DNA of 63,304 nt, counting the filler, from Sphacelaria rigidula (taxonomy: Eukaryota): the NCBI GenBank assembly GCA_964200075.2. It is 10 parts of 10 records of this genome, joined end to end, with 100 filler letters (N's around TTAATTAATTAA, not from the genome) between each part and the next. Parts side by side here need not be neighbours in the genome. Positions count along the whole stretch, not along the records: positions 19,024 to 25,264 come from CAXNAA020021291.1; 9 more parts are not named here. One strand, written 5' to 3'. The translations under genes and the position numbers were made by a program. The notes beneath the pieces are model-generated. The model was not told where the DNA came from. It saw only the letters and a program-made list of their open reading frames with translations, and made no database searches. This document shows, piece by piece, positions 487-63,304 of the stretch (positions are counted from its first letter, which is position 1; each line of letters starts with the position of its first letter).

Positions 487-1000
487 GTACTCATGATCAT
501 GCATGTCGTAGTCATGAGACCATTGACCTCGCATCCCTGCAAAGGCGGTACGGAACATGCCGGGTTTCCGCCGGACCAGGCTCGCGCTCAGTCACCAAGT
601 GCGAAGCGCCGTGGTGAGTTGGGTGAGTCGCATGAAGGGTGAGCTGCATCCTGCCAAGATTGCTCGGCCCGAAGCGTACTGATTATGTTACATTTAGATG
701 ACAGCCTCCAATGAGTTGCTTTATTTTCTGGTGTCGCCACTTCCAGAGACGGCGACAGCTGACACGCTGCCTCATGGGTGTCTCACCACATTTGAACACT
801 ACGTAGTACGATCATCCCCTTTGCGCGGAGTTGAGGTCCTCCCATGCTGCACAATATGATCTAGCTCGACCACCATCATGGTTACCGCAATAAACAACGC
901 GAGCGCGTGAAAAAAGCGGTAACCTGGTTTCCCAGCCTACGCAGTGAGTGCCGTGTTTACCTCCAGCGTCGTTGCCAACCGATGCCAACCTCATATGAGG
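487..1000 (-). mobile_element. Family B non-autonomous retroelement (SINE-like), longest copy, inside a sugar porter intron
   Basis: 487-790 matches copies at 11697-11995 and 34534-34830. 780-875 matches 34830-34897, and 920-1000 matches 44385-44470. The 3' end (GTACTCAT on +) is at 487, next to GGG. Confidence 0.8.
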
Positions 1001-2701: not shown

Positions 2702-3502
2702 TTGTGCTATGCTTTTTGGTTTGTTCCCGACAGTTGAGTACACGTTTATTATTGTCGCGTGTCCGTCCGTCATGTCTTCGGAATGGAAGAGACGTACCTC
2801 CACTCTCGTGTGTGCTACATTTTCCCCACCAGTAAAAAAACCATGTCCAGTCGGTGTCGGCTGTTGTAGCATATGGACTCAAACACCACGCTGAGGGTGT
2901 TTTTTTCGGGAAGCTGCGCGAGCTTTGACGTCACACCATGAGATTAGGTCATGCTCGCTCAACCTCTCCAAAATGTTTTTCGTTGACCCCGTCCCTCCGC
3001 CCACTGGCAGAAGAATAGGAATATAGTTGCTGATGAAAGCCCAACCCCTGATATTTCGTTGGGGTAAAGTCTCTCAGACGCCGTCTATTTTTTTTAAAAG
3101 TCACGTCGAAGTTATCTGTAATTTCGCTGTGTGCGGTACTACTAATGTAAAAGTTCATACTCCACTCTATTGCGTCGCTTCCTCTTTCTCGTTCTCCCTT
3201 CCAGTTTGTTTTTGCATGCTGATTCTTTTCTTCCCTTTCCCTTTTTCTGCTTTTTTTTTTTTCTCGTGAACATTGTTTTTCAGATTTTTTTCGGCGAGCG
3301 TTTCCGTGTTGTGAAGCTCACGTTTGTGTTGTCATCCCATCTGTTCTGGGCGTACGGTATGTTTATCTTGTGGATAATGACCACTGTTGGGTCCCTCAGG
3401 GATCCCTTGATGTGTGACAATCAGGTGACTCAAACAGATCAAATGAATCAATGTGGTATGTACTGCTGTTGTATTGATTGAACTCCGGCGTCCCCCCCCG
3501 CT

Positions 3503-3707
3503 ACTACTAGGTAGATGGTGGCACAGACACAAACGGCGAAACAGGACGGGGATAAGATATGTGAAAGGCTTCCTTGTAATGTACGGAAGAAGCGTGATGA
3601 ACGCCCAAACGTTGGAGGTGTCTCGATTAGGAGTAGGAGCGGTGCTCCGTCTCGAAGGAGATGCGTGGTCCATGGTCGAACGGATAAGGCAAGCAACAAA
3701 TGAGTAC
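3503..3707 (+). mobile_element. Family A LINE, 5'-truncated 3' end
   Basis: Encodes the recurring terminus KQDGDKICERLPCNVRKKRDERPNVGGVSIRSRSGAPSRRRCVVHGRTDKASNK*. Ends ATGAGTAC followed by a C-run. Confidence 0.85.
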
Positions 3708-3758
3708 CCCCCCTCCCCTCTCCTCGCCCCCTCCCCTGCTCCCGCCCTTGAAACCCAG

Positions 3759-9430: not shown

Positions 9431-9507
9431 TAACATCTCGTGTTTATACCAAAAGGTGTAGACTGGTGTCCAGAACAAATGAAAGGAATGACAACACACA
9501 CATATGC

Positions 9508-9540
<33 letters not shown>

Positions 9541-10100
9541 CACAAAAACAAAAAAACACAAAAAAAAAAAAAAAACCACAAAAAACAAAAAATAAAACAC
9601 CAAAANNNNNNNNNNCAAAAAGGGGTAGACTGGTGTCCAAAACAAATGAAAGGAATGACAACACACACATATGCCCCCCCCCCCCCCCCACCCGCGTAGT
9701 GTTATGCACGATGAAGAACGAGAAAAGTGCATACCCTATCGCCAGGCACACGATATTTTCTCCATCAGAATATCACAGCGACGTACGTATCAAAGAAATG
9801 TACTAGTATGCAACCGTTAATGCCGCACACACTGATTCCAAGAAGTACAACAATATTCCCCGCGATGGACAAAGAAGGTACGTGAAGCATCTCACATCTT
9901 ATCCACTCGACGCTGAAATGGCACATAACGCCGTCGCTTTATCTTGCAACCACGACTTGTCAGTTCAGAGTGGGCAATGCCTATTTAATCTTTTCACTGC
10001 CATGGCGCAAATCGTTACATTTGCGAGGATGAGAGGGGGGTTGTCCATTCCATTTTGAGCATATTTCTGCGTACCACCCGCATGTATATTCCGATTCCGA

Positions 10101-11696: not shown

Positions 11697-11995
11697 GTAC
11701 TCATGATCATGCATGCCATATCATAAGAACATTGACCTCGCATCCCCACGAAGCCGGGACTGAGCACGCCGGGTTTTCGCCGGACCAGGGTTGCACTCAA
11801 ATCACCAAGCGTAAAGCGCCATGGTGTGTTCGGCGAGTCGCATGAAGGGTGAGCTGCATCCTGCTAAGATTGTTCGGCCCGAAGCCTACTGATTATCTTG
11901 CATTTGGATGACAGCCAACAATGAGTTGCTTCATTCTGTGGTATTGCCACTTCCAGAGACAGCCACGACTTTTACACTGCCTCATGGGTGTCTAA
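11697..11995 (-). mobile_element. Family B retroelement copy
   Basis: Full 300-bp core. Imperfect TSD CCAAACACAATGGAGGGG (11678-11695) vs CCAGACACAGTGAGAGGGG (11996-12014). Confidence 0.85.
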
Positions 11996-12813
11996 CCAGA
12001 CACAGTGAGAGGGGGGGGGGAAGAAAGATGGCCGTGGACCTGGGTTGCGATTCAGCCGTTCGAAAACCATATTATTTTGGCGGAAAAGCCTCATTCGCGA
12101 GCATTATAGAAGCGAGACGCATACACTGCCACAGCATCAACATATAATTGAAGATCAGAATAATAGGGCCTGAAAAAATAGACTATAAAGGGAGAGCGAG
12201 CACAAAATAAAAACATGAACAGATATCCACCAACAGAGCAGAAGCCGAAACGTCGTCAGTCAAAAGTCGAGAATCGCTACCGTTGCAACTCAAGGACGGC
12301 AGTGACTAACCGAGAGGATACTAGAGGGATGTGGCATTTTTCGCGTTACCCAAGACTCTTCCACCCATCGCTAGTCAGCGACAAGGGGAAACAACGTACA
12401 CCAATCGTGCCACTGCGCCGTGGATTGGTTTTCAACACGACTGCTAGAGTTAACAGAGCACTGAAATAGACATTTCATCAGTACCGTCGTGGATGAGCAA
12501 AATCGCACTTCATCTTTTTTTCTTTTCTTTTTTCCTTACACTTTGAACCCCTCCCCTTCCTCGGGATGAGTCCGTGGCCTCANNNNNNNNNNNNNNNNNN
12601 NNNNNNNNNNNNNNNNNNNNNNNNNNTTAATTAATTAANNNNNNNNNNNNNNNNNNNNNNNNNNNNNNNNNNNNNNNNNNNNCGAAAAACCGATCATCTG
12701 TTTTCCAGACTATCGGTCGCCCCGGTGGCTCAGAAGATTACGAGGTTACCAACTGAGCCACCGGGGCGACCGATAGTCTGGAAAACAGATGATCGGTTTT
12801 TCGGTAAGTGTTT

Positions 12814-13890
12814 TCAGCAAATCGCGAACGATAACTTCCATGTCTTTGATGAAGATAAACACAGCGCTTTTTTTAAGCAAGTCCATAATGGGGCGTATCC
12901 GTTTGGACAGGTTAGGCAAACCTTTGCGATAGTAGGACAGTTCACCCAATAATGAGCGAAGCTAAGTGATGTTAGTGGGCATTGGCAATTCAGCCATTGC
13001 TCTGACTTTGCTGGTTTCCGGGTGTAGACCTGCCCGTGAAATCGAATGTCCCAGGAAATCCAGTTCAGTAGCGCTAAGGCGAGCTTTGGATGAAGACAGT
13101 TCCAAACGTGCGTCCGTAGCCGAGGAAAAAACTCTCGTGATGTGAGCACATGCGCAATAGGGGAGGCATCGAAGGCGACAGCGTCGTCCAAGTACATGAT
13201 CACGTGTTCGAGATTCTCTGTGACGCGTTGCATGAAGCGTTGGAAACAACCTGGTGCAGCGGCGGCGCCTTGTGGCATACGGAGCCATTCGTAGAGCCCG
13301 GAAGATGTACAGAATGCTGTCAGTGGGGCTCTATCAGGGTGAAGCGCTCTCTAGGAAAATTCAGAAGCGAGATCGAAAGTACTGAATATTTTGCTTTCGC
13401 CGAGAGAGTCGAAGACTTCATATATGCGAGGGATTAAAAGTTTTCCCACCACAGTAACGCAGGATGCAGCTCACCCTTCATGCGACTCGCCGAACACACC
13501 ACGGCGCTTCNNNNNNNNNNTCCGTCCCGGCTATGTAGGGATGCGAGGTCAATGGTCTTTATGGCTATGGCATGCATGATCATGAGTACACCACAGTAAC
13601 GCGATTTAGTCGTTGATGATTCACGATGATGCGTATGTTTCCATCCTTTTTGGGGACTACCACTAGGGGTGAGGCCCATGGAGAGGAGGAGTGTTGGATT
13701 AATCCGGCACCTGAGTACGCATCTAAGATGACGTTATCGTTTTTTAGTGAGGACAAGGTTTGTCCGATACGGTCGAGAGGAGCTTGGCGAAACGCCAGGT
13801 TAATGTGTGATTTCAAAAGGCAGCGTTTTGCAATGCCCCAGATCCGTTTTGAATCGAGAGAATCGATCTTGGTACTCCGATAAAACATCG
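12814..13890 (-). pseudogene. Gypsy reverse transcriptase domain (frameshifted, interrupted by a family B insertion)
   Basis: AGLIQHSSSPWASPLVVVPKKDGNIRIIVNHQRLN; MPQGAAAAPGCFQRFMQRVTENLEHVIMYLDD; ELDFLGHSIS. Confidence 0.88.
13461..13588 (+). mobile_element. Family B retroelement inserted into the Gypsy RT
   Basis: Perfect 14-bp TSD CACCACAGTAACGC (13447-13460 and 13589-13602). The element ends CATGATCATGAGTA(C). Confidence 0.9.
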
Positions 13891-21300: not shown

Positions 21301-24300
21301 CTACGGTGCAGGTTTCGATAGTTCCAGTTCCAATTTCACAGCTTTTCCATTGTCTTCGGTGTCCACTCCATCTGCTGTAACAGATTTTCTGGACGCCACT
21401 GACGTCGTCGTACGAGGTCGCTTCGCCCTTCTACTACTAGCGCTGCAACTGCCAGAACCACCCACGCTGCTGCACGCTCTAGCAGCGTCCGCTGCTCCCA
21501 CATGCGTTCTCCTTGATCTCGTTCCATCTACACAACTTGCAGCGGGGGTTACTTTCAGCTCCATCTTAGGGCCCACGTTGGTCCCTTCCACATCCATCTG
21601 GACCACAGTGGTGGGCTGTGCGAACCCCGGCTGTGGAGCCCAACCACCCTGCACGGCACTATCGGGGAGTAAACACCGGCGAAATCCAGCACTATCGGTT
21701 CCGCAGCCGGAGCAGGTACCAGAGGAACGGCCGAATGTACCTCGGTCATCGACATCCACATCTTCTGTCATGGTATCGTCGGCAGTGCCCCCGCCATTAG
21801 CGCCCTCATCTATGGAGACATTATCCGCCGTCACTGATGCAATATGTTGAGGGCAGATGCTCCTTGGGTAGTCCCTGAACCGCTTGCTTTCACACTGCCT
21901 ACTGTTGACGCGCGTTTTCCCCACTATAGCACGGGCGCAAGACTCCGCCTTCCCTGTACCTGATGCACCGTAAAATGGCTGTTCGGAGCAGCCATGACTT
22001 ACACAACATGTACCTCCTACATCTATCATCTCGGCCACAGGGTACTCGATGCGGAGATGGTCTTTCTTTCTGCTCGCCACGCCGTGCGACGGTGTGTAGC
22101 GGTCGTTGTTGCCGCATACTCTGGTCTTGACATTCACCATCCCCCTTCTGGCATCGGGTGGGGGACCTAGACCTGCCAGAAAGAAGAAATATACTAGTAG
22201 TCGTGTGGAGGAGGAAGAAGATGCACATAATTGCCCCTGTGGCAAAGCAATTGAGAGAAAAAATCACATAGTTACAGAATGTGAACTTTACAAGGAGGAA
22301 CGGGAAGTGCTGAAGGGGGAAATGCGGGACGTGAACGAAGGTGGCATGGAATCGTTTGATGCATTGGACAGTAGCGAGAAAACGATGGCTATATTACGGA
22401 ATAGATGGTGGCCACAGACCAGGACGGGGATAAGGTTTGTACAAGATTTTTGTGTAGTGTATTTAAGAGACGTAATGAGCGCTGGAATGTTGAACGTGTC
22501 TGTAGTAGGGGTAGAAACGGTGCTCTGTCTCGAAAGGGACGCGTGGTCAATGGTCAAAAACTTGGGAAGCATCAGATGAGCACGCCCCCTCTGGCATCTG
22601 TGGAGCAGAACTCGGCTCTTCTACGGCCCACTACGCCGGACAACAAGCTCTTCGAGCAACAAACATCGCCGCATATTATACCTTCAACATCGACCAACCC
22701 CTCTCTCGCATGCGTGTCGCAGGATTTGGCCTTCCTACTGCCCGTCACACCGCAAGACGGCTCTGTGGAGCAGCCGTCGATAACGTGATAAGTTGTCGTC
22801 ACGCCGCCTATTTTTTCCCTGGCTCTCCTGCCGCCCTCCACCCCGTACGACGCCAATGAAATGCAGTAGTCGTTGCCGCCAGATTTACTCTTCACGTTGA
22901 TCATGCCTTCTCTGGCATGCCTGGCACAGAATTCGGCTGTCTTACTGCCCGCCACCCCGTACGACGGCTGTGTGGAGCAGCCATCGTTGCCACACAATTT
23001 GTATCCAACATTCACCATCCCCTCTGTGGCATGCTTGGAGCAGAATTCGGCTTTCCTGCTGCCAGCCACGCCGTACACCGCCAACGAAAAGCAGTCGTCG
23101 CTGCCACACAATTTGCCTCCAACATTCACCATCCCCTCTGTGGCATGCTTGGCACAGAACTCGGCTTTCCTGCTGCCAACCGCGCCGTACAACGCCAACG
23201 AAAAGCAGTCGTCGCTGCCACACAGTTTGCTCCTCACGTTGACCATGCCTTCTCTGGCATGCTGGGCACAGAACTCGGCTTCCCTACTGCCCGCCATCCC
23301 GTACGACGGCTGTGTGGAGCAGTCATCGTTGCCACAAACTTTCTTCTTAACGTCGACCATGCCCTCTCTGGCATGCTTGGCACAGAATTCGGCTTCCCTA
23401 CTGCCAGCCACCCCGTACGACGGCCGTATGGAGCAGCCGTCGTTGCCACACAATTTGCCTCTAACCTTCACCATCCCCTCCGTGGCATGCTTGGAGCAGA
23501 ATTCGGCTTTCCTGCTGCCAGCCATGCCGTACAACGCCACCGAAAAGCAGTCGTTGCTGCCGCACAGTTTGTTCCTGACGTTGACCATGCCCTCACTGGC
23601 ATGCTTGGCACATAATTCGGCTTTTCCACTAGCCTCCACGCCATACGACGGTACTGTGAAGCAGCCGTTGCTGCCGCACACTCTGCTCGTCACGTTGACC
23701 ATGCCCTCCGTGGCATGCTTGGAGCAGAATTCGGCTTTCCTGCTGCCAGCCACGCCGTACACCGCCAACGAAAAGCAGTCGTCGCTGCCGCACAGTTTGT
23801 TCCTCACGTTGACCATGCCTTTTCTGGCATGCTTGGCACAGAACTCGGCTTTCCTGCTGCCAGCCGCGCCGTACAACGCCAACGAAAAGCAGTCGTCGCT
23901 GCCACACAGTTTGCTCCTCACGTTGACCATGCCTTTTCTGGCATGCTTGGCTCAGAACTCGGCTTTCCTACTGCCCGCCACCCCGTACGACGGCTGTGTG
24001 GAGCAGCCGTCGTTGCCACAGACTTTCTTCTTAACGTCGACCATGCCCTCTCTGGCATGCTTGGCACAGAACTCGGCTTTTCTGCTGCCAGCCACGCCGT
24101 ACACCGCCAACGAAAAGCAGTCGTCGCTGCCACATGATTTGCTCCTCACGTTGACCATGCCTTTTCTGGCATGCTTGGAACAGAATTCGGCTTTCCTGCT
24201 GCCAGCCACGCCGTACAACGCCAACGAAAAGCAGCCGTCGCTGCCACACACTCTGCTCGACACGTTGACCATGCCTTTTCTGGCATGCTTGGAGCAGAAC

Positions 24301-24725
24301 TCGGCTTTTCTACTACCCTCCACCCCGTACGACGATACTGTGAAACAGCCGTTGCTACCGCACACTCTGCTCGTCACGTTGACCATGCCCTCTCTGACAT
24401 GCTTGGCGCAGAACTCGGCTTTTTTACTGCCCGCCACCCCATACCTCGGCAATGAAATGCAGCCGTCGCTGCCACATGATTTGCTCATCACCTTGACCAT
24501 GCCCTCACTTGCATGCTTGGCGCAGAACTCGGCTTTCCTACTGCCCTCTACCCCGTACGACGGCCGTATGGAGCAGCCGTCGCTCCCGCACCCTCTGCCT
24601 TTACCGTATACCATGTCTGTTTTGGAATGCCGGGTGCAGAAGTCGGCTTTTCTGCTGCCATCCACACCGTATTGCGGCCTTGATGTACACGTCACATGGG
24701 CGCAAATTCGAAGACCTATCCCCTA
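21301..24725 (-). pseudogene. EsV-1-7 domain (Cys/His repeat) protein gene; in-frame TGA and LINE insertion suggest it is damaged
   Basis: Tandem 38-aa (114-nt) repeats C-X4-C-X16-C-X2-H-X12 (e.g. CGSDDCFSLALYGAAGSRKAEFCAKHARKGMVNVRSKL), the EsV-1-7/IMM family spacing. About 16 canonical and ~5 degenerate units. TGA at 23952-23954, LINE at 22156-22584, and the frame resumes to a stop at 21301. Confidence 0.88.
22156..22584 (+). mobile_element. Family A LINE 3' fragment (with C-terminal CCHC finger) inserted antisense into the EsV-1-7 gene
   Basis: Encodes KYTSSRVEEEEDAHNCPCGKAIERKNHIVTECELY...RWWPQT. TSD CCCCCTTCTGGCATC (22141-22155) / CCCCCTCTGGCATC (22585-22598). Confidence 0.9.
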
Positions 24726-25096
24726 CATAGCTGCACAGGAAAAACATGCACTGTACATAAATCTGGCTATCGATATCATGCCCGCTTCCGAATAGCCAAC
24801 AACGAGGGGCAGCTGCGTCTTCCGGCACCACCAGCCACCTGGACGAGCATCGTAAGCAGCAGCATTCCCAGAGGAGAAGAGAACACCGTGTCAAACGACT
24901 GTCGCCGACAGGATCAGACAATGCACTGTCATCACTCCCCACTAGGAACGAGCAGGTGTAAGGAATTGCCCCCAATATCATGCCAATAAGGAATCACCTG
25001 GTATACGTGACGGATGTCGCTACCGTTGGCTTGATGCTACTATAGCGAAATGCGCGACCATCGGGAACTTTCGAGTCATCCTACGATGGGGGGGGG

Positions 25097-25161
25097 GTAC
25101 TCATTTGTTGCTTGCCTCAGTCGTTCGACCATTGACCACGCGTCCCTTTCGAGACGGAGCA
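25097..25161 (-). mobile_element. Family A LINE 3' end
   Basis: Flanked by CCTACGAT-G-run (25080) and CCTACGATA-G-run (25168), an apparent TSD. Confidence 0.85.
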
Positions 25162-25364
25162 ATCCTACCTACGATAGGGGGGGGGGGGGGGGGGTATGGG
25201 GTTGCCCGAAAACAAAGGATCATAAGTGGGCCCGACGCCGCCCCCCCTTGTCGTGGCTGTTGCANNNNNNNNNNNNNNNNNNNNNNNNNNNNNNNNNNNN
25301 NNNNNNNNTTAATTAATTAANNNNNNNNNNNNNNNNNNNNNNNNNNNNNNNNNNNNNNNNNNNN

Positions 25365-26289
25365 GGAGGAGTATACTAAAGCTCGGAAGGAAGTAAAAAA
25401 GGTGGTGTAGCAGAAAAAAAAGGAAGTTTGGGAAGGTGTGATGAATCAATCAAATGAAGATTTCGACGGCGGGATGAAGCAAATGTGGGCAGGGATAAAA
25501 GGGATCACGAGAAACCAGGTAAGAAGGATAGACAACGGGATAGCCACACTACGGACACATAACGGTAAAATGGTCAACAATTCGAAGGGGAAGAGAAAGG
25601 TGCTAGTCGAGCACTACCGTGAACTAGGGACACCAAAAACTAACACGAAGTTCGACACGGAATTCGAAAAATAAATCAACGAGTGGGCAGAAGCAAATGT
25701 AGAGACGTCAAAACGGGAGGATAGAGGCTGGACAGAATTGCAGAGAGAGTTTACTAGAGATAAAGTAGAGGGGTGCGTAGCTAAACTCAAGAACAAAAAG
25801 GCAGCAGGGGCAGACGGAATAGTGAAGGAATTTCTTTAGCATAGGGGGGGGGGCGGGGGGGGGGCGTACTCATTTGTTGCTTGCNNNNNNNNNNCCATTG
25901 ACCACGCATCCCTTTCGAGACGGAGCACCGTCACTACTCCTAATAGAGACACCTCCAAATTCTGGCGCTCATTACTTCATAGGGGGGAAGGAATGATTAC
26001 CATGATGGTTATGCTGTATAACTGGATATGGGAGAACGAGTACACACCCCATAGGTGGAGAGAAGGAGAAGTAGTCAATCTTTTCAAAAAGAGAAACAAG
26101 GCCGACCCAGGAAACTATAAAGGGATAACGCTACGGAGCACGGTAGGGAAAACATTATGTAAGATTCTGAATGATGGAGTAGGAACGGTGCTAAAAAAGA
26201 AGGACAATATTGGGAGTAGGAACGGTGCTCCGTCTCGAAAGGGATGCAATGTCAATGGTGAAACGACTAAGGCAAGCAACAAATGAGTA
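25365..26289 (+). mobile_element. Family A LINE, decayed ORF (pre-RT and RT start) joined to the 3' terminus
   Basis: KLKNKKAAGADGIV; WREGEVVNLFKKRNKADPGNYKGITLRSTVGKTLCKILND (non-LTR RT N-terminal motifs). Colinear with 59380-60070 and ends ...TTKASNK* GTAC plus a C-run. Confidence 0.85.
25866..25976 (-). mobile_element. Family A 3' end nested in another family A copy
   Basis: TSD CATAGGGGGG (25840-25849 and 25978-25987) at the Gly-Gly codons of the host KYGGEG motif. Confidence 0.8.
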
Positions 26290-26689
26290 CGCCCCCTCCC
26301 CCTCCCCCTCCCCCGATAATTGTTGTGTACGCTGTGTAATGGAACGGTTCGTAGGTTGAAGAAATCACCGAAGCTGCTCATCACTTGAGCTGTGCGTGAC
26401 CTTGTATAAATCTGGTCAAAATTCGATGAGAAACGATGCTATGTGTGGGACCTGCGCGAAGCGGTGATAGTCGTGTGCGTTGCGTAATGGCACAGGTCAT
26501 ACTTTGAAGGAAACGCCGTAGGTGCTCACCAACTGACCACATTGTGCGTGACCTCGCACAATTTTGTTCAGAAAGTAATGAGAAACGATCCGAAGAATGG
26601 CAACGATTGAGTTATTGGAATGATGCTGACCCAAATTTGAAATAAACATGTTTGTGAGACCAGGAACGAATTTTAGTTTTCGGATTTCG

Positions 26690-29576: not shown

Positions 29577-29804
29577 GTACGCTGACAAGTTGCGAAGATT
29601 TCGTGGTCGAATACACTGGTTGTAGACGTCTTTTTATGCGATTTCTGAACACAAATTTTGGCAGGTTACTCAGCATCTTCTCTTTTCCTGTAACAGGAAG
29701 TTGTCTTGAATGCACAGGACGTATGTATATCGTTTCTCTATGGAAACGCTCCGAATGATGCCGCGATAACCCCCCCCCCCAAAAACAAAACCCAGCATGG
29801 ACGA

Positions 29805-29925
29805 AAAAAAGTAATGAATACCCAAATGTTGGAGGTGTCTCCAATAGGAGTAGGAACGGTGCCCCGTCTCGAAAGGGATGCATGGTCGATGGTCAGACGA
29901 CTAAGGTAAGCAACAAATGAGCATG
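29805..29925 (+). mobile_element. Family A LINE 3' end inside a WD40 intron
   Basis: Consensus tail flanked on both sides by a C-run followed by an AAAC..CAGC-like sequence. Confidence 0.8.
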
Positions 29926-31189: not shown

Positions 31190-31604
31190 AATCGAAAACC
31201 CGGCGCGCTCTGGCCCGGCTTTGTAGGGATGCGAGGTCAACGGTCACATGACTACGGCATGTATGATCATGAGTACCCCCCCCCTCCCGCTTCGGGTGTG
31301 TACTCATGACTATGGTATGCATGATCATGAGTACACCCCCCCCGCTTCCCCGAAAAGGTTTCGTGTAAGTATGGAATAAACGTAATGAGCGCCGGAATGT
31401 TCAAGGTGGCTCTATTAGGAATGGGAACGGTGTCCGTCTTGGAAGGGATGGTGGTCAATGGTCAAACGACTGAGGCAAGCAACAAATAAGTTCGTCCCCT
31501 CCCCCCCCCCTCGCTCCCCATGAGGCAGTGTGAAAGCCGTGGCTGTCTCTGGAAGTGGCGATACCACAGAATGAAGCAACTCATTGTTGGCTGTCATCCA
31601 AATG
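31190..31604 (+). mobile_element. Cluster of stacked family B and family A insertions
   Basis: B tail (~31195-31276), second B tail (~31306-31335), A 3' end (~31355-31495), B body (31517-31604), each separated by C-runs. Confidence 0.8.
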
Positions 31605-31893
31605 NNNNNNNNNNNNNNNNNNNNNNNNNNNNNNNNNNNNNNNNNNNNTTAATTAATTAANNNNNNNNNNNNNNNNNNNNNNNNNNNNNNNNNNNNNNNN
31701 NNNNTGAATTGATGCCGCTTCTGCAGGTGCCCTACTCTAAGGCAAGCATGGTACGGGGTAGGATCGAGGCAAACAAAAAATGAGTCCCCCCCCCCCCCCC
31801 CCCTCCTCATGACTTGTCCAAATCGCCTGTTTTTTCGACGATCTCCCGCTACACTACTCGGCGCCTCCCACTACCATGAAAAAATAAATAAAG

Positions 31894-34533: not shown

Positions 34534-34897
34534 GTACTCATTATCATGCATGGCAGAGTCATACGACCATTGACCTCGCATCCCTAGAACGCCGTGATGG
34601 AGCAAGCCGGGTTTTTGCCGGACCAGGCTCGCACTCAATCACCAAACGCGAAACGCCATGATGTATTCGGTGAGTCGTATGAAGAGTGAGCTGCACCCTG
34701 CTAAGACTAGTCGGCCCGAAGCTTACCGATTATCTTGCATATGGATGGCATCCCTACAATGAGTGACTTCATTTTCTGGTGTTGCCGTTTCCAGAGGCAG
34801 CAGCGGGTTCCACACTGCCTCATGGAGGTCTCACCATATAAACACTACTTGGTATGATTATCCCACTTCGCACGAAATGATCTAGCTCGATCACCAT
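34534..34897 (-). mobile_element. Family B retroelement inside an RGS intron
   Basis: Matches 487-875. Both flanks carry AAGGGGGA G-runs. Confidence 0.85.
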
Positions 34898-35090
34898 GTT
34901 TACCCCAAGAAAAGGGGGAGGGGGGGGCAGCAAGGAGTATCGTTGGAGGAGAAGTACCAACGCGCACGCACTCCCTGGCACTTTCGTAACGACATGGTCA
35001 CAACGATTCATGAGTGAAACACTATATGCCCTTGATACTTCTTCTTATTTTGATTATCCCCTGTTCCATCCCGTCCCATCCCACCCGCAG

Positions 35091-38044: not shown

Positions 38045-38195
38045 GTGTTTGGCGAGTCGCATGAAGGGTGAGCTGCATCCTGCGAAGACTGTTCGACCAG
38101 AAGCCTACTGATTATCTTGCGTTTGGATGACAGCCAACAATGGGTTGCTTTATTTTCTAGTATCGTCACTTCCAGAGACAGTCACGGCTTATACA
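38045..38195 (-). mobile_element. Family B fragment at contig edge
   Basis: GGCGAGTCGCATGAAGGGTGAGCTGCATCCTGC core. Confidence 0.85.
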
Positions 38196-39251
38196 TCCCA
38201 CCCTACGATAGTGGGGGGGAGGGGGTATTTGATTCCACGAAAAACGAGGCTCACAGGTGTGTCAGACGACCTGACTATGGTTGAGTTTGTATTTGGGTGG
38301 AAACGGTTTCAAGTGGTGTGGATGAGTGTTCTTATTGGTACCAAGCGCGTTCGAGCAAACGTTGCTGCTTTCAACGACGATTTCATTGCTGAATTTAACC
38401 CCCCCCCCCCCCCCGCTCTGCATCACCCCCCAGGGGTTTTGTTTTTAGTTTTTTTCTAATCTCCCCTTCGTCTTTTTCTTTTTTTNNNNNNNNNNTTTGG
38501 TACCAAGGGCTGACGGCCAAAGTTTGCTGTTTTCAGGGACCTTTTCTTGGCTGAATTTATCCCCCCCCCCCCTGTCGTAGCATCACTCGTGAGTGTTTTT
38601 TTTGCAGTTTTTTTCCAACTAGGTCTCTCGTCTGTTGCTTTCCTTGTGGCTGCTACTACTGTTCCGTCGAGAAATGTACGAAATGCTTTTCCCTCCTGGG
38701 TGTCATTGATGTATTTTGGCGACAGGTGTGGCGGCGGACGGAAGAGTACTTGAAGGACGCTCTGGGTTCTGTGGTGACCGATGTGGAAGACATGGCCGTC
38801 AACCTCTTGGTATTTGTCAGCGCGCAGGTGACACAGTTGAAGCGTTGAAATGTGATCGACCACCCAGGAGCCGTCAAAGATGGATGGTTGCCACAGAAGT
38901 ATTTGCGTACTGTAGTATACCACTCTGTGGTCGCGAAGTGCGCGGGAGGGTTCGTATGCCGCACTCTTAGTCACTCTAAATGAAACCGTGTAAAAAACTG
39001 TCGTCGTGGGCAACGCGGGAATACGCATAGTTGTGGCCTCGTCACTCGTGCATGTGCGTAGAAAGTACTCGTTTCTATCATCATTTATGCTCTCTTCACC
39101 TACCCCTTTTTCTGACATAGATTGGCACCTGAACATATTGCGGTGATACTTGTTGACTTTTCTCGTGTTATGGCTACTATACGATGTCAAGGGTGTACTC
39201 CGTATGCTGAAGGTCCGTGGTCCTCACCCTTGCCCCTCAATGATCTATGAG

Positions 39252-39441
39252 TAGATGGTGGCGTCAGACGGCGAAACAGGACGGGGATACAAAAGGTGAA
39301 ATATTTTGTGTGTAATAGATGAAATGAACGTAATAAGCACTTGGATGCTGGAGGTCTCTATTCGGAGTAAGGATGTTACTCTGCCTCAAAAGCGATGCGT
39401 GGTCAATGGTCAAATGACTAAGGTCAGCAATAAGTGAGTAC
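39252..39441 (+). mobile_element. Family A LINE 3' end
   Basis: Consensus tail with imperfect TSD CACCCTTGCCCCTCAA / CACCCCCTGCCCCCCAA. Confidence 0.8.
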
Positions 39442-44057: not shown

Positions 44058-44284
44058 CAGTGCTCCGTCTCGAGAGGGATGTACGGTCAGAGCTACAAAT
44101 GAGTACGCCCCCGCCTCCCCCCCCCCTCCTTACCCATGAGGCAGTGTATGAGCCGTGGCTGTCTCTGGAAGTGACGATACTAAATAATAAAGAAACCCAT
44201 TGTTGGCTGTCATCCAAATGCAAGGTAATCAGTAGGCTTGGGGCCGAGCAATCTAAACCGGATGCAGCTCACCCTTCATGCGAC
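44058..44284 (+). mobile_element. Family A tail followed by a C-run and a family B body
   Basis: ...AAATGAGTACGCCCCCGCCTCCCCCCCCCTCCTTACCCATGAGGCAGTG... Confidence 0.8.
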
Positions 44285-49000: not shown

Positions 49001-50002
49001 TACTTCGATACCACAACAGAGGTCAATGGAGGAAAGACTGAGCGAAGCAAAAAACACTTATTTGTCTGCTTTTGTGAGTGAGTGGTCGGTACCCAGATGG
49101 CCAAATATGGCTAGGGTGCAAGATAGGTGATGTGCATGCGATCTGTAGGGGAACACAATGAACAAACTGATCAATCAAATGGTTTTTTCATGCCCGGCTC
49201 GAAATTTTCCTCGAGAAACTTCGGGACGCGCATGACATGATTGACTTTTCACGCTGTTCAGCAACCGGAGGACCGGTACTCCCCGCTCTCCACCCCCACG
49301 TTCCCTGGAAAGCGTTGGATGTTTCTGATCTGTCGGCCCGCGTAATTCTTCCAAGGCGGGGCTGGAAGTCTGGGGGTTAGGGACCCGTGTGTATGTGTGG
49401 GGTCGTCACCACAGATAGACACGCCGGGGCGGCCAACGGGTAACACACTGCAAAGGGGCAGTAGGCCACGGATGAAATCAAGGTCATACTTTTTCCTTCT
49501 CACAGTCTGTCGTCGAAAGGTGTCCAACGCTGAACTGACTGTATATTGGGGAGCAGATACTCAGTCTTGAATCGCGCTGTGCATCAGCGCCATTTGTGTT
49601 TGTCACACGCTCAACCCTTCCCCTTCCTGCGGACGGCTACGTGGTCTCGAGGAATCAGCCCATCTCGCCCCCGGCACACACACACCTCACATTGTGGTAT
49701 GGCGGGTTGGATTATGACCAACACCTTCGCACCGCATCGACTGTCATCCGAAAAAGTCGGCCAAACAGATTTTTTTGCTACCCACGGCCTCACGCCTTTA
49801 ACGATGGAAATCACATACTGATGGAAGGAGAAGAAAAAAAAACGCATGTTTGTGCACCCCAAACCCTCCGAGGGGGGGAGGGCTAGGGGGGTGCCTCGCG
49901 AGACGGTGATTTGAGCCCTCGTTTGTTTTGTCACTACGAACTCAAGTGCTCAACAGTTGTTCTGTAAGCCTGTAGGAGGAGGGGGGGCGGAGACGGGGGG
50001 CG

Positions 50003-50624
50003 CGAACTCATTCGTTGCCTGCCTTAGTCGTTTGGCCATTGATCACGCATCCCTTGCGAGACGGAGCACCGTTCCTACTCCTAGTAGAGACACCTCCAGC
50101 ATTCCGTGCTCATTACGTTTCTGTCATACATTACACAAAAACCTTTTCCAAGACGAAATACTGTCCATGGGTGAGGGTGCGGGGTACAGGACAAAAATAA
50201 GAGACATGAAACGAGGGAAAGAAAAACGCTGAGGCGGCAAGTAGACGAAGAAAAACACCTGAATATATACGGGAGGTCGAGACCGGGGATAGGAGTGAAA
50301 AGATATCTGCATGACCTAATGGACGCAGCGAAAATATTGAAACTGCGATTTTGGGTGGGGGACCTGGACCTGCCGGAGAGAAGAAAGATATATACCAGTA
50401 GTCGAAAGGAGGAGGAAATAAATGGACAGAACTGTCTCTGTGGCAAAGCAATAGAGAGTAGAAGTCATATAATTGAAGAATGCGAACTGTACAAGGAGGA
50501 ACTCGACGTGCTAGAGGAGGGAATGCAGGACGAGAACGAAGGTGGCATGAAATCGTTTGATGCATTAGACAGTAGGGAGAAAACGATTGCTATACTAGGA
50601 GATAGATGGCGGCCACAGACGGCG
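50003..50624. mobile_element. Two family A LINE fragments back to back (3' end on minus strand; C-terminal ORF on plus strand)
   Basis: 50003-50150 is a reversed tail next to a G-run. 50295-50624 encodes LKLRFWVGDLDLPERRK...CLCGKAIESRSHIIEECELY (CCHC finger), homologous to 22156-22420. Confidence 0.82.
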
Positions 50625-50854
50625 NNNNNNNNNNNNNNNNNNNNNNNNNNNNNNNNNNNNNNNNNNNNTTAATTAATTAANNNNNNNNNNNNNNNNNNNN
50701 NNNNNNNNNNNNNNNNNNNNNNNNTGTTTGCCGGGTTTAAACGGCCGCTCGGGGTTGCCGCTTTCCCCCCCCTCGTCTGGGGGGTTCTCATGTGTCCTTC
50801 CCCCCCCCCCCCCCCCCCGCTCTTCCCTCAGCCACCCATCCCGCGCGCCCCCAC

Positions 50855-51088
50855 AAGCAAGATTATCAGTACACTTCGGGCCGAACAATCTTAGCAGGAT
50901 GCAGGTCACCCACCCTTCACGCGACCCGCCAAACACATCACGGCGCTTCGCGCTTGGCGATTGTGAGCCTACTTCGGCGAAAACCTGGTGTGCTCTGTCC
51001 CGGCCGTGTAGGGGATGCGAGGTCAATGGTCTTATGACTGCGGCATGCAAGATCATGACTACTACATCCTTAAGATGCGTCATGATCA
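50855..51088 (+). mobile_element. Family B copy
   Basis: Core CAAGATTATCAGT...GGGATGCGAGGTCAATGGTCTTATGAC, preceded by C-runs. Confidence 0.8.
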
Positions 51089-59089: not shown

Positions 59090-60600
59090 AAATACAAGAA
59101 AAACAGCAAGAGCTCTAAGAAGAGATGTCCAAAAATGCAGTGAAATTCTCCAAGGTTTTGGAAGCGTAAGTACAGTCAAAACCGAAATGGAAAGGTATCG
59201 GGCAGGAGCGAAAACTATACTAGAAGGATGGGAGCAATTGGTCAAGACCACAGCAAGTAAAGTGATCGTATGCAACAGAGCAGTGAAATGGTGGGATGGG
59301 GAAGTAGAAGAGGCTATAAGAGTAAGGAGAGAGAGACACGCGAGACAAAAATTGAGTAAAACTACGGTAGGGTGGGAGGAGTGTGCCAAAGCTCGAAATG
59401 AGGTAACAAAATAGTGGAAAAGAAAAAGTAGGGAAAATGGGGAAGATTTAATGAAAAAACGAGTGGAGTTCTCGATGGCGGGATGAAACAAATGTCGGTA
59501 CTCGTAGGGATAAAAGAGATATTGGACAAACAAGCAGGCAGGATAAACAAGGGAAATATCCACACTAAGAGCACACAACGGTAAAATGGTTGGTACTTCG
59601 AAGGGGAACAGAGAGGTACCAGTATAGCACTGCGTAAGCTAGGAACACCAAAAGCTATCAAGAAGTTCGATACGGAATTCGAAAACGAAATCAACGGGTT
59701 GGCCGAGGCAAATGTAGAAGTGTCAAAACAGAAGGATAGTGACTCCAAAGAATTGGAGACAAAGTCTACCAGAGATGAAGCAAGGGAGTGGCTCACTCAA
59801 CAACAGAAATGCTGCACGGGCAGAAGACGTGGTGAACGAATTTCTCAAGTACGGGGGAGAGGGAACGATTACCGTAATGATTGTACTCTACAATCGGATC
59901 TGGGAAAACAAGTACACACCCAAGAGATGGAGAGAAGGAGCAGCAGTCAACCTTTTGATGAAAGGAGACAAGGCTCACCCAGGGAACTACAGAGGGATAA
60001 CGCTACTGAGCACCCTAGGGAAAACCTTCTGTAAGATTCTGAATGATGAAGTGGGAACGGTGCTAGAAGAGGAAGAACACGTCATCGAGGGGCAAGCAGG
60101 TTTCAGATCAAACCTTAGTTGCGTAGACCATGTATACACAATAGGTAATATGATTCAAGTTAGGAAAGACGCCGGGGTAACAACGTACTGTTTTTTTCCA
60201 GACGTGCAAAATGCCCATGCCACAGTATGGAGGAATGGAGTCTGGGAAAAGTCGTGGGAAACTGGGATCAGAGGGAAAATGTGGAGAATGGTGGAGAAGA
60301 TGACAGAATGTGTGCTAGAAGTGCCATGATGCTAGACGGGGAAATATCGAGATATTTTCATATTTTACAACGAGTTGCACAAGGATGTACGCTATCACTC
60401 TCTTTATTCGAAGTACTTGTTCATGATCTGGTAGTAGCAATAGAAGCGGCGAAGCCAGGAGTCAATGCGGGGGAAGATATGGTATCGGGATTGATGTTCG
60501 CGGATAATTACGTGGGGATATCAGAAACAACCGAAGGACTGCAGAAGAAAATAGAGGAGGTGCTAGAATGATACACTAGAAAATGGAGAGTGACAGCGAA
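59090..60600 (+). mobile_element. Family A LINE, decayed reverse transcriptase region
   Basis: KGDKAHPGNYRGITLLSTLGK, EGQAGFR...CVDH, YCFFPDV, VAQGCTLS, LMFADN (catalytic FADD mutated, ~60494-60508). Several frameshifts. Confidence 0.9.
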
Positions 60601-61121
60601 CGTGACTATATTTTTTTGTTCCTTCACTTGAAAACTGATTACAGATTTCTTATTCATGCCGATTTATTGGATTTTTTGTTTTCTGAAACTCTGAAATGTA
60701 TGGTGTCCCTCACTAGTATAGCGCTTCGTCCCCAGAACTATATTAGACCTGTAGTCCTGATCCCTAATCGATTCGCTGATGTTTTTTATTTATCGCAAAA
60801 CGGACAATCTCAGCATGTGACTTATCCGGAATATGCAAAAAAAAAAAAAGTGTTTCACCCACTTGTTTTTCCTTGCCGCCCCACAGTGTAAAACGTACAG
60901 CTAGGAGGGCAAAACGGTGTATAGATATCCATTGCACCCCGAAACACCAGTGTGTTTTGATCTTGGCTGGACATAGATAGCACTCCTTTCAATACCCACG
61001 AAGCGCAGGTCATATTTTAGATCTACATACATGCATAATGACTTATTCTGTCGTGTACGTATGTGTGGAATATTCATTGTTATTTTCTGGGGGGGGGGTT
61101 CTCTCTTTTTGTTTTTCGCAG

Positions 61122-62240: not shown

Positions 62241-63131
62241 GAGTTATGCACTGGGGGAGTGATGCGTCGGTCGCTTGAGACAAGAGACTCGTCTCGAGGA
62301 AGATTCCATTCGGTTTTGATTGATTGTCGCTCATAGGCTTATCCCCTTGAAATCCAAGCGCGGTCACAAGAAACACCCGACCTAGGCGAATAAAGTTGGA
62401 GATACTTGCTGAAGGAAACTGTCTCGGAAAAAAGGGAAGGCGGGGATGAAATGAGGGAACAAAACAAGGGAGGGGGGGTTAAAGTGCGACAACAACCAAG
62501 GTATATCGGTAAACGCAGACGTATCATGTTGCCCCTACAAGAAGGCAGAAAAACGTGGTAGTTGTGTTCGTGTTCAAAGCAAGTGTAAAGGCTGTTGACG
62601 TGAACCGGGTACTACTACACTGTAAGGGTACACACAAGGGCTAAGCGGAGACCATGGTAATCAATATACTGATATCAGACATGAAGCGCTTGCACCTTTT
62701 CACCTGCCCAAGAGTTTCCGAACATCCAGGTCGTGCTAGCCCTCGAGTTTGGGCGAGGACACGTCGAGAGTGAAAGAGAGCGGTGCGGGCAGGGGGTGAA
62801 ATGATCGATACTGAGTGATAGGCATATCGGGTAGGCGTAAATGAGGATACCATTTGGGCGCGAGTGCTGACGGGATTTCTCCAAAACTGTGAGCTTTAGC
62901 CAAAAACCTTGCAGAAGCCTATGACTGAGAGATCGGGTGACATGGCCCGTCCTCTATGTACCGCTGCTTCGCGTGTGGCTGCCGACCCAATGTCAGCACG
63001 ATGACTGCTCCCGTAATACCTGTTCCCCATTACGGCAATTGTCGATGCGTACGTGTTCGTCGTATGTCGCTCCAAAATTTTACGTAGGCGTCGTCTATCC
63101 GCTAAACAAAAGCGTTTTATCCCTAATACAT

Positions 63132-63304
63132 CCATGAGGCGGTGTTTAAGCCGTGGCTGTCTCTGGAAGTGGCGATACCAGACAATAAAGCAAGTCATTG
63201 TAGGCTGTCATCCAAAAGCAAGATGACCAATAGGCTTCGGGCCGAACAATCTCAGCCAGATGCGGCTCATCCTCCATGCGACTCGCCGAACACACCACGG
63301 CGCT
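63132..63304 (+). mobile_element. Family B fragment at window end
   Basis: CCATGAGGCGGTG...GCCGTGGCTGTCTCTGGAAGTGGCGATACC core. Confidence 0.85.

Follow-up and report, generated by a model that had tools for sequence, protein, structure and literature searches.

Does a retrotransposon whose 3' end is followed by cytosines instead of poly(A) bring those cytosines with it, or does it find them in the DNA it enters? The question is raised by a 63,304-base stretch of DNA from Sphacelaria rigidula (assembly GCA_964200075.2; hereafter the window), in which fragments of a long interspersed nuclear element (LINE), here called family A, end in the octamer ATGAGTAC and run directly into C-rich sequence, and in which a second, non-coding repeat, family B, shares that terminus. 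We consider it quite probable that family A represents an autonomous retrotransposon without long terminal repeats (non-LTR), with a templated (C)n tail, that lands at C-runs by target-primed reverse transcription (TPRT) primed from a G-run, and that family B is its dependent partner.

A LINE 3' end followed by cytosines

The original prediction counted about 14 family A 3' fragments in the 63 kb, and all 14 were recovered as 3' pieces of one LINE by BLASTN with the fragment at 22156-22584, by TBLASTN with the relative P0018 and by BLASTN with the related locus L001. The fragment at 22156-22584 aligns to L001 2310-2758 (BLASTN), and its frame 22157-22579 codes for a C-terminal region containing a CCHC motif. 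Within the window the LINE is present as fragments only; searching 14 long open reading frames (ORFs) of the window against Pfam gave nothing except one RVT_1 match, in the internal piece at 59098-60685 (E 1.4e-6), which at 28.6 bits lies slightly below the 29.6 cut-off.

The remainder of the element can be read from its relatives. Those designated P0001-P0026, from European Nucleotide Archive (ENA) assemblies, carry the ORF upstream into the reverse transcriptase (RT); two of them, P0001 and P0013, end in the same unrelated peptide, ...CLLYTSPSPRD..., which we take to be translated sequencing adapter, so that these contig ends are presumably untrimmed. The full-length relative P0027 (1,360 aa) holds Exo_endo_phos (170-392) and RVT_1 (740-989) in one ORF, P0028 (1,328 aa) has the same domain layout, and in both a C-terminal region of ~370 aa holds the CCHC motif; neither has an RNase H match at E <= 0.01. 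The relatives thus have a single ORF in which an apurinic/apyrimidinic (APE)-type endonuclease is followed by the RT, with no RNase H. Among named homologues, those closest to the family are proteins of Ectocarpus (52-65% identity to P0018), one of which, P0029, has a LINE part that also ends ...ASNK; over the C-terminal region, identity to P0009 is 53% and 69% for window copies and 51% for Ectocarpus P0030. Neighbours in the Protein Atlas, mostly mollusc RVT_1 clusters, offer a weak lead only. Judging from these sequence comparisons, the family probably belongs with the RTE-X elements known from brown algae.

The octamer ATGAGTAC occurs 13 times in the window against 1.51 expected, the maximum over 100 shuffles being 5. 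Proteins of the relatives terminate ...TKASNK, and the final codons of L001 are AAG GCA AGC AAC AAA TGA, followed by GTAC; because the L001 stop sits inside ATGAGTAC and is followed by GTAC, the 3' untranslated region (UTR) before the C-run is 4-5 nt long, in agreement with the ~4 nt first read from the window. The predicted lack of poly(A) is equally clear: an A-run follows none of 23 ends (13 of family A, 7 of family B and 3 at related loci), which leads us to reject a relaxed, poly(A)-dependent LINE of the L1 type. With poly(A) absent, the 3' UTR very short and the tail a simple repeat, the 3' end of the family is of the RTE/RTE-X type.

What follows these ends is C-rich, as had been claimed for every visible family A terminus, and in the window this holds for 13 of 13. 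At 20 of the 23 ends (13/13 in family A, 3/3 at the related loci and 4/7 in family B), C makes up 50% or more of the first 12 nt downstream, a level reached by 7.6% of randomly drawn background 12-mers, and the mean C content of these 12 nt is 70%, compared to a background of 25%. Positions +2 to +9 after the octamer are C in 16-22 of the 23 ends. Position +1, by contrast, is family-specific, with G in 11/16 family A ends (3 shifted variants counted) and A in 5/7 family B ends; the base at the junction is thus part of the element, with the Cs following behind. All three related loci from other assemblies end ...AAATGA[G/C]TAC G and continue with C7-C11, while a further locus, L004, is a distant LINE without a C-run and is uninformative.

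Target and tail as sources of the cytosines

The original prediction took the element to be a poly(A)-less non-LTR retrotransposon that targets C/G homopolymers. In its purest form, such a reading would have the endonuclease nick by G/C homopolymers and the element end, tail-less, at ATGAGTAC(G), with all later Cs belonging to the target. Two insertions look just so: around 22156-22584 both copies of the target-site duplication (TSD) hold exactly C5, and element and TSD are separated by only one extra base (G); at 25097 the 5' C-run (C18) exceeds its 3' counterpart (C9) in length. A tail is thus not visible at every insertion. The copy at 25866-25978 tells against a tail-less element, however. 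It lies inside another LINE copy, its 3' side reading G C10 G C10 TATG and its 5' side CCCCCCTATG; the empty paralogue at 59850-59865 has only C5 in element orientation (G5 on the + strand), and the consensus of many contigs bridging the site, with joints 25835/25839->25978/25982 and a loose-end consensus, likewise has only five Cs. Since the empty site holds only five Cs, ~15 C/G bases at 25840-25865 did not come from the target. Furthermore, C-rich tails interrupted by T or G and 24-40 nt in length (26291-26314, 3708-3747 and after 34534) exceed every TSD that we measured (10-19 bp), and the curators of the Ectocarpus elements count '(C)n 3'' as part of the consensus. We therefore consider it unlikely that the target alone supplies the Cs: the targeting of C-runs by a poly(A)-less element stands, in that TSDs start in the target C-run, whereas the tail-less terminus does not.

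The converse, in which the Cs are the element-borne equivalent of poly(A), integration makes no choice of site and any 5' C-run is due to chance or to low complexity, draws on the fact that plain alignment scores place true 5'/3' flank pairs no higher than mismatched pairs. Plain scoring fails to separate them because all flanks are C-rich, and TSD scoring was redone with C:C matches down-weighted, on 11 true and 110 mismatched pairs. The true pairs then total 111.1, where deranged pairs give 85.0 +/- 5.0 and not one derangement in 2,000 scores as high; taken singly, 5 of the 11 pairs are convincing or fair (with 2, 2, 3, 7 and 10 of the 110 mismatched pairs scoring as well). The TSDs start with the C-run and then run on into unique sequence. 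Two of those proposed earlier are clear, namely 22141/22585, which reads CCCCCT(T)CTGGCATC, and 25080-25096/25168-25194, a C-run plus (T)ATCGTAGG (2/110 mismatched pairs score as well in each case); a third, 25840/25979 (first given as 25978), is a C-run plus TATG and is backed by paralogous empty sites. The fourth, 39225/39441, we reject as mere C-rich similarity indistinguishable from chance, with 76 of the 110 mismatched flank pairs scoring as well. A family B copy adds CCCCTC(T)CA(C/T)TGTGT(C/T)TGG at 12015/11680 (3/110).

At 22141/22585, 25168/25080, 25979/25840 and 12015/11680 both sides of the insertion have the C-run ahead of the unique TSD part, which unselected sites would not lead one to expect. 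The copy at 22156 sits in the diverged first unit of a 114-bp tandem repeat, and that unit has C5, as do both TSD copies; among the ten paralogous 114-bp units listed, none has a C-run at the matching place, where they read GCC(T/C)(T/C)(T/C)T/A, and none carries the insertion. (The repeat, of 38 codons and ~15-18 units, spans 22577-24680 and lies in an ORF of 641 aa at 22870-24795 on the + strand, for which Pfam gave no match.) The earlier claim that the Cs belong at least partly to the target is borne out by TSDs that extend past the Cs and by an empty paralogue already C5 at the insertion point, and a tail inserted without regard to its site is very improbable. One defined target sequence, as in R1, Tx1 or R2, is not seen in these insertions, the TSDs and flanks differing between copies beyond the C-run.

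That the homopolymers were made by sequencing or assembly, e.g. as poly-G of two-colour chemistry or collapsed repeats, is barely credible: the window does consist of unplaced contigs of ~6.24 kb and homopolymer lengths do differ between TSD copies, but the runs lie within contigs, next to matching unique TSD sequence, three loci of other assemblies and contigs from the runs of two studies show this junction too, and the feature is recorded for Ectocarpus as well.

The Cs, then, come from both target and element. The contribution of the tail varies between insertions, and the evidence for target plus tail is modest but useful.

Family B, tail re-use and long C/G runs

Family B, a repeat of at least ~335-430 bp that lacks a long ORF, ends in ATGAGTAC at 487, 11697, 13589, 31276, 31334, 34534 and 51062. 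Its last ~50 nt have GGGATGCG[A/T]GGTCAATGGTC ... ATGAGTAC in common with family A, while the sequence upstream differs; the shared stretch is coding in family A and non-coding in family B. A shared 3' end of this kind is the test for a LINE and partner with stringent 3' recognition, and families A and B have it. No head derived from tRNA, 5S or 7SL RNA was found, with ARAGORN calling 0 genes and Rfam giving 0 matches at the gathering score over the whole window, and family B is consequently not counted as a short interspersed nuclear element (SINE) in the strict sense, which would have such a head with a pol III promoter. From its sequence it is probably a LINE-dependent, non-autonomous partner, filed here as the Ectocarpus curators filed RTEX-N1. 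At 31269-31334 a B 3' end plus C-run, an inverted terminal ~10 nt and a second B 3' end of 25 nt form a palindrome-like junction, and a similar motif, TTCGGGG, lies in the 3' flank of the B copy at 487.

In the mechanism that we favour, family A would be the 3' end of a ~5-6 kb element with one ORF of ~1,330-1,360 aa encoding an APE-type endonuclease, RT and the CCHC region, and ending ...AAA TGA GTAC G, after which a templated (C)n or C-rich simple-repeat tail would stand in place of poly(A). Because each source copy is trailed by Cs, we infer that the tail is templated and that the transcript ends in (C)n. Since TSDs start with the C-run, the first nick would fall on the other strand, at the 3' side of the G-run; by analogy with L1 and RTE-clade LINEs, the 3'-OH of that G-run would pair with the (C)n tail of the RNA and prime reverse transcription, and the annealing register would set how many extra Cs each new copy gains, from none to many. 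The protein would probably recognise the shared 3' box and so mobilise family B in trans, and old tails would turn into landing sites, giving nested and head-to-tail copies.

The window contains hallmarks of TPRT, namely 5'-truncated copies and one 5' inversion, as well as instances of tail re-use. A family A copy at 31353 lies inside a family B tail, and family B 5' ends abut family A tails at 31517 and 44132; the joint of a B tail with a B head (31343->31517) recurs in 15, 19, 21 and 3 contigs of runs X1, X2, X4 and X5, respectively. Public runs that include the segment 25365-31604 are labelled 'algae metagenome' and 'organism A'. Repeats dominate these sequencing-run contigs, from which paralogous empty sites and tandem joints are what can be read. 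Depth summed over contigs is 10^4-10^5 times as high in the repeats as in unique parts, which shows the great abundance of the former; depth is not a copy number, and contigs so swamped by repeats yield neither copy number nor allelic empty sites.

Several points weigh against this mechanism. Six of the 11 TSD pairs, 39225/39441 included, are individually no better than mismatched controls; three of the seven family B ends have no C-run; and, as described above, the 3' junction at 22156 has no Cs beyond the TSD and that at 25097 has the shorter run. A 5-bp hairpin predicted at the 3' end shows a compensatory change in 0 of 14 pairs in the alignment fold, and single-sequence 3' folds are no better than shuffles (z-scores of -1.5 to +1.4). 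The RTE-X label, a probable one, derives from homology to Ectocarpus proteins and from the labels of the paper that describes them. Finally, the sample consists of a single 63-kb string of joined, unplaced contigs rich in repeats, in which assembled homopolymer lengths are unreliable and three copies are severed by contig ends. The window joins ten such contigs of 6,241 or 6,240 bases, sorted by falling size, through identical 100-base spacers (44 N, TTAATTAATTAA, 44 N); adjoining segments are for this reason not physically linked, and the repeat density is that of unplaced contigs and not representative of the genome.

The insertions stand among many long homopolymers. The window has 26 C/G runs of at least 10 bases, against 0.2 expected from shuffles; by hand count, 16 adjoin C-tailed repeats and 10 lie outside these classes. 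The 16 comprise 8 family A tails, 4 that form the TSD or 5' flank of a copy of either family (one of them approximate) and 4 in other repeat families. The latter are two families ending in C-runs without the ATGAGTAC box, which may be further passengers of the same machinery; in one of them, at 9509-9605, C31 leads directly into ~60 nt of A-rich sequence, behind which lies an N gap. A bolder proposal is that the endonuclease itself is specific for G/C homopolymers, the preference then not being due to primer-tail annealing alone, and that most long C/G runs of the genome are produced, extended and used again by the pair of elements, as self-propagating landing pads that build up nested and tandem arrays. 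We regard this as doubtful, if conceivable. A LINE with C-runs as both tail and target already accounts for the strong excess of long C/G homopolymers in the repeats of this alga, which matters for assembly and annotation and for the prediction of G-quadruplexes and i-motifs.

The features are collected in Table 1, and two of the LINE copies merit comment. At 49995-50624 the 3' segment (50144-49995, minus strand) corresponds to L001 2611-2761 and the inverted segment (50150-50624, plus strand) to L001 2105-2583, the arrangement expected from twin priming; the far junction and 5' TSD of this copy are hidden by the contig end. The copy at 25365-26314 lacks ~1.7 kb, and a 17-nt near-repeat, GGAGTAGGAACGGTGCT, is present both ~20 nt ahead of the junction and on the 3' side of it; the gap could stem from template switching or from a separate short insertion.

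Table 1. Repeat copies, target-site duplications and spacers in the 63,304-base window
Feature	Positions	Strand	Remarks
Family A 3' fragment, 5'-truncated, 429 bp	22156..22584	+	C-terminal CCHC region coded; stop inside ATGAGCAC, then G
5' TSD copy of 22156 insertion	22141..22155	+	CCCCCTTCTGGCATC
3' TSD copy of 22156 insertion	22585..22598	+	CCCCCTCTGGCATC
Family A 3' fragment	3499..3707	+	C-rich tail 3708-3747
Family A 3' fragment, severed by contig end	18856..18923	-	G + C5 downstream
Family A 3' fragment	25097..25161	-	3' TSD 25080-25096; 5' TSD 25168-25194
TSDs of 25097 insertion	25080-25096 (3'); 25168-25194 (5')	-	3' C9 ATCGTAGG; 5' C18 TATCGTAGG
Family A 3' fragment, inside LINE RT region	25866..25978	-	Tail + 3' TSD 25840-25865; 5' TSD 25979-25988 (CCCCCCTATG)
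LINE copy, family A, without L001 999-2671	25365..26290	+	Split by 25866-25978 insertion; RT part 25365-26207
Family A 3' end of the 25365 copy	26208..26290	+	Then G(CCCCCT)3CCCCC at 26291-26314
Family A 3' fragment	29803..29925	+	5' flank C11 AAA... (29770-29802); 3' flank TCCCT C11 AAACCAGC
Family A 3' fragment, in C-run after family B 3' end (31327-31352)	31353..31490	+	Own tail 31491-31516
Very short family A-like 3' end (first placed at ~31730)	31767..31785	+	Then C18 (31786-31803)
Family A 3' fragment ending GTGAGTAC	39245..39441	+	C-rich flanks
Family A 3' fragment, internal deletion	44060..44106	+	C8 upstream; C-rich tail 44107-44131, then directly family B 5' start
Family A insertion, inverted 5' part, severed by contig end	49995..50624	-	Tail ~49975-50002; recovered as two fragments, ~50003-50147 (-) and 50148-50624 (+)
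Family A 3' end, severed by contig end	56929..56964	-	Then C25 (56904-56928; G on + strand)
Internal RT-coding part, same LINE family	59098..60685	+	78% identity to L001 1-1514; 50% aa identity to P0018 8-140
Family B copy ending ...CATGATCATGAGTACA	11697..11996	-	Non-coding; TSD at 12015/11680
Family B copy, longer form	487..900	-	
Family B copy	34534..34905	-	Then ~40-nt C/T-rich tract
Family B 3' end 31193-31276 + C-run, inverted terminal fragment, second B 3' fragment 31310-31334 + A C8	31193..31334	+	
Family B 3' end after N gap	13521..13589	+	No C-run after
Family B copy ending ATGACTAC	50851..51062	+	No C-run after; C19 upstream 50800-50818
Family B 5' part, start CCCATGAGGCAG directly after C-run, severed by contig end	31517..31604	+	
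Other internal family B pieces	38045-38195; 44132-44284; 63128-63304	-; +; +	
First other repeat family ending in C-runs (C31, C16)	9451-9539, 9618-9689		
Second other repeat family ending in C-runs (C16, C12)	38335-38414, 38497-38572		
Spacers	6242, 12583, 18924, 25265, 31605, 37945, 44285, 50625, 56965		

Comparison with known systems

In mammalian L1 the nick leaves a homopolymer primer able to pair with the homopolymer tail of the RNA. A LINE with a C-run as both tail and target would be a natural counterpart to this poly(A)/T-run system, and could show how far the integration site is set by endonuclease specificity and how far by the pairing of the RNA tail with nicked DNA. The likeness extends to TSDs that start with the tail base, to the re-use of old tails, to 5'-truncated copies and to a 5' inversion. 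Unlike L1, the Sphacelaria element uses C/G and not A/T, has one ORF and belongs to another clade; its tail presumably comes from a DNA template and not from polyadenylation, and the 3' box common to both families suggests that template recognition is stringent, not relaxed. The L1 target is given as 5'-TT|AAAA-3' (PMC13295347, in the portion available).

LINEs that insert into simple repeats are a second point of reference, and microsatellite-specific families are found in the R1 clade. SART1Bm, a telomere-repeat-specific LINE (PMC7265360, as far as the accessible text describes it), likewise enters a simple repeat that matches its own 3' end. Such elements are site-specific, belong to other clades and have a defined repeat unit, whereas here the site is a short homopolymer between otherwise unrelated flanks.

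Closer are the LINEs of the RTE and RTE-X clades with their SINE partners. From the available portions of the sources, RTEX elements of green algae have (CA)n, (CAA)n or (CCAT)n at their ends (PMC3747384, Table 3), and in Bov-B and Sauria SINE the first TSD base matches the 3' microsatellite (PMC13295347). So far as these sources go, families A and B agree with such pairs in lacking poly(A), in the very short 3' UTR and templated repeat tail, in a partner that shares the 3' end of the LINE, and in TSDs whose start is complementary in sense to the tail. They differ in that the tail is mononucleotide C, where the others have a unit of 2-7 nt, and in that the match to the target extends over 5-18 nt, where the others match one or a few bases.

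The nearest system is in another brown alga. The original prediction knew of no earlier description, yet the curated transposable element (TE) table for Ectocarpus lists RTEX-1_Ec32, of 5,867 bp, as 'single EN-RT ORF; (C)n 3'' with a 'C-rich' TSD, and RTEX-2_Ec32 with '(C)n termini/TSD' (PMC12477816, supplementary file 1). It also holds two short partners that share the 3' end: RTEX-N1 (607 bp), with a head of unknown origin, 60 bp of 3' end shared and the remark 'can be present in tandem', and RTEX-N2 (188 bp) (PMC12477816). The (C)n-ended LINEs were labelled RTE-X there by best blastp matches to RTEX-4_NV and RTEX-1_BF; the main text, in the portion available, mentions the shared 3' end but neither the C tail nor the C-rich target, and uses 'c-rich' and 'homopolymer' 0 times each (PMC12477816). 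In the literature searched for non-LTR elements with poly-C or C-rich tails we found no description besides this table, and a brown-algal centromere preprint has no mention of RTE-X.

Family A has the traits of these Ectocarpus elements, i.e. the (C)n tail and the C-rich TSDs, and, in the relatives, the single EN-RT ORF; family B resembles the RTEX-N partners, as far as the table describes them, in being short, in a head of unknown origin, in sharing its 3' end with a LINE (~60 bp in Ectocarpus) and in its possible tandem arrangement. Identities to P0009 indicate that they are not the same family, and the link to RTEX-1 and RTEX-2 is drawn through protein homologues and the notes of the table. 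Since the same features are recorded for the Ectocarpus RTE-X families, the Sphacelaria element is of an already known kind and not a new one. In the portion seen, the Ectocarpus record consists of table notes without an analysis of tail versus target; what Sphacelaria adds is a second host and a first dissection of the two.

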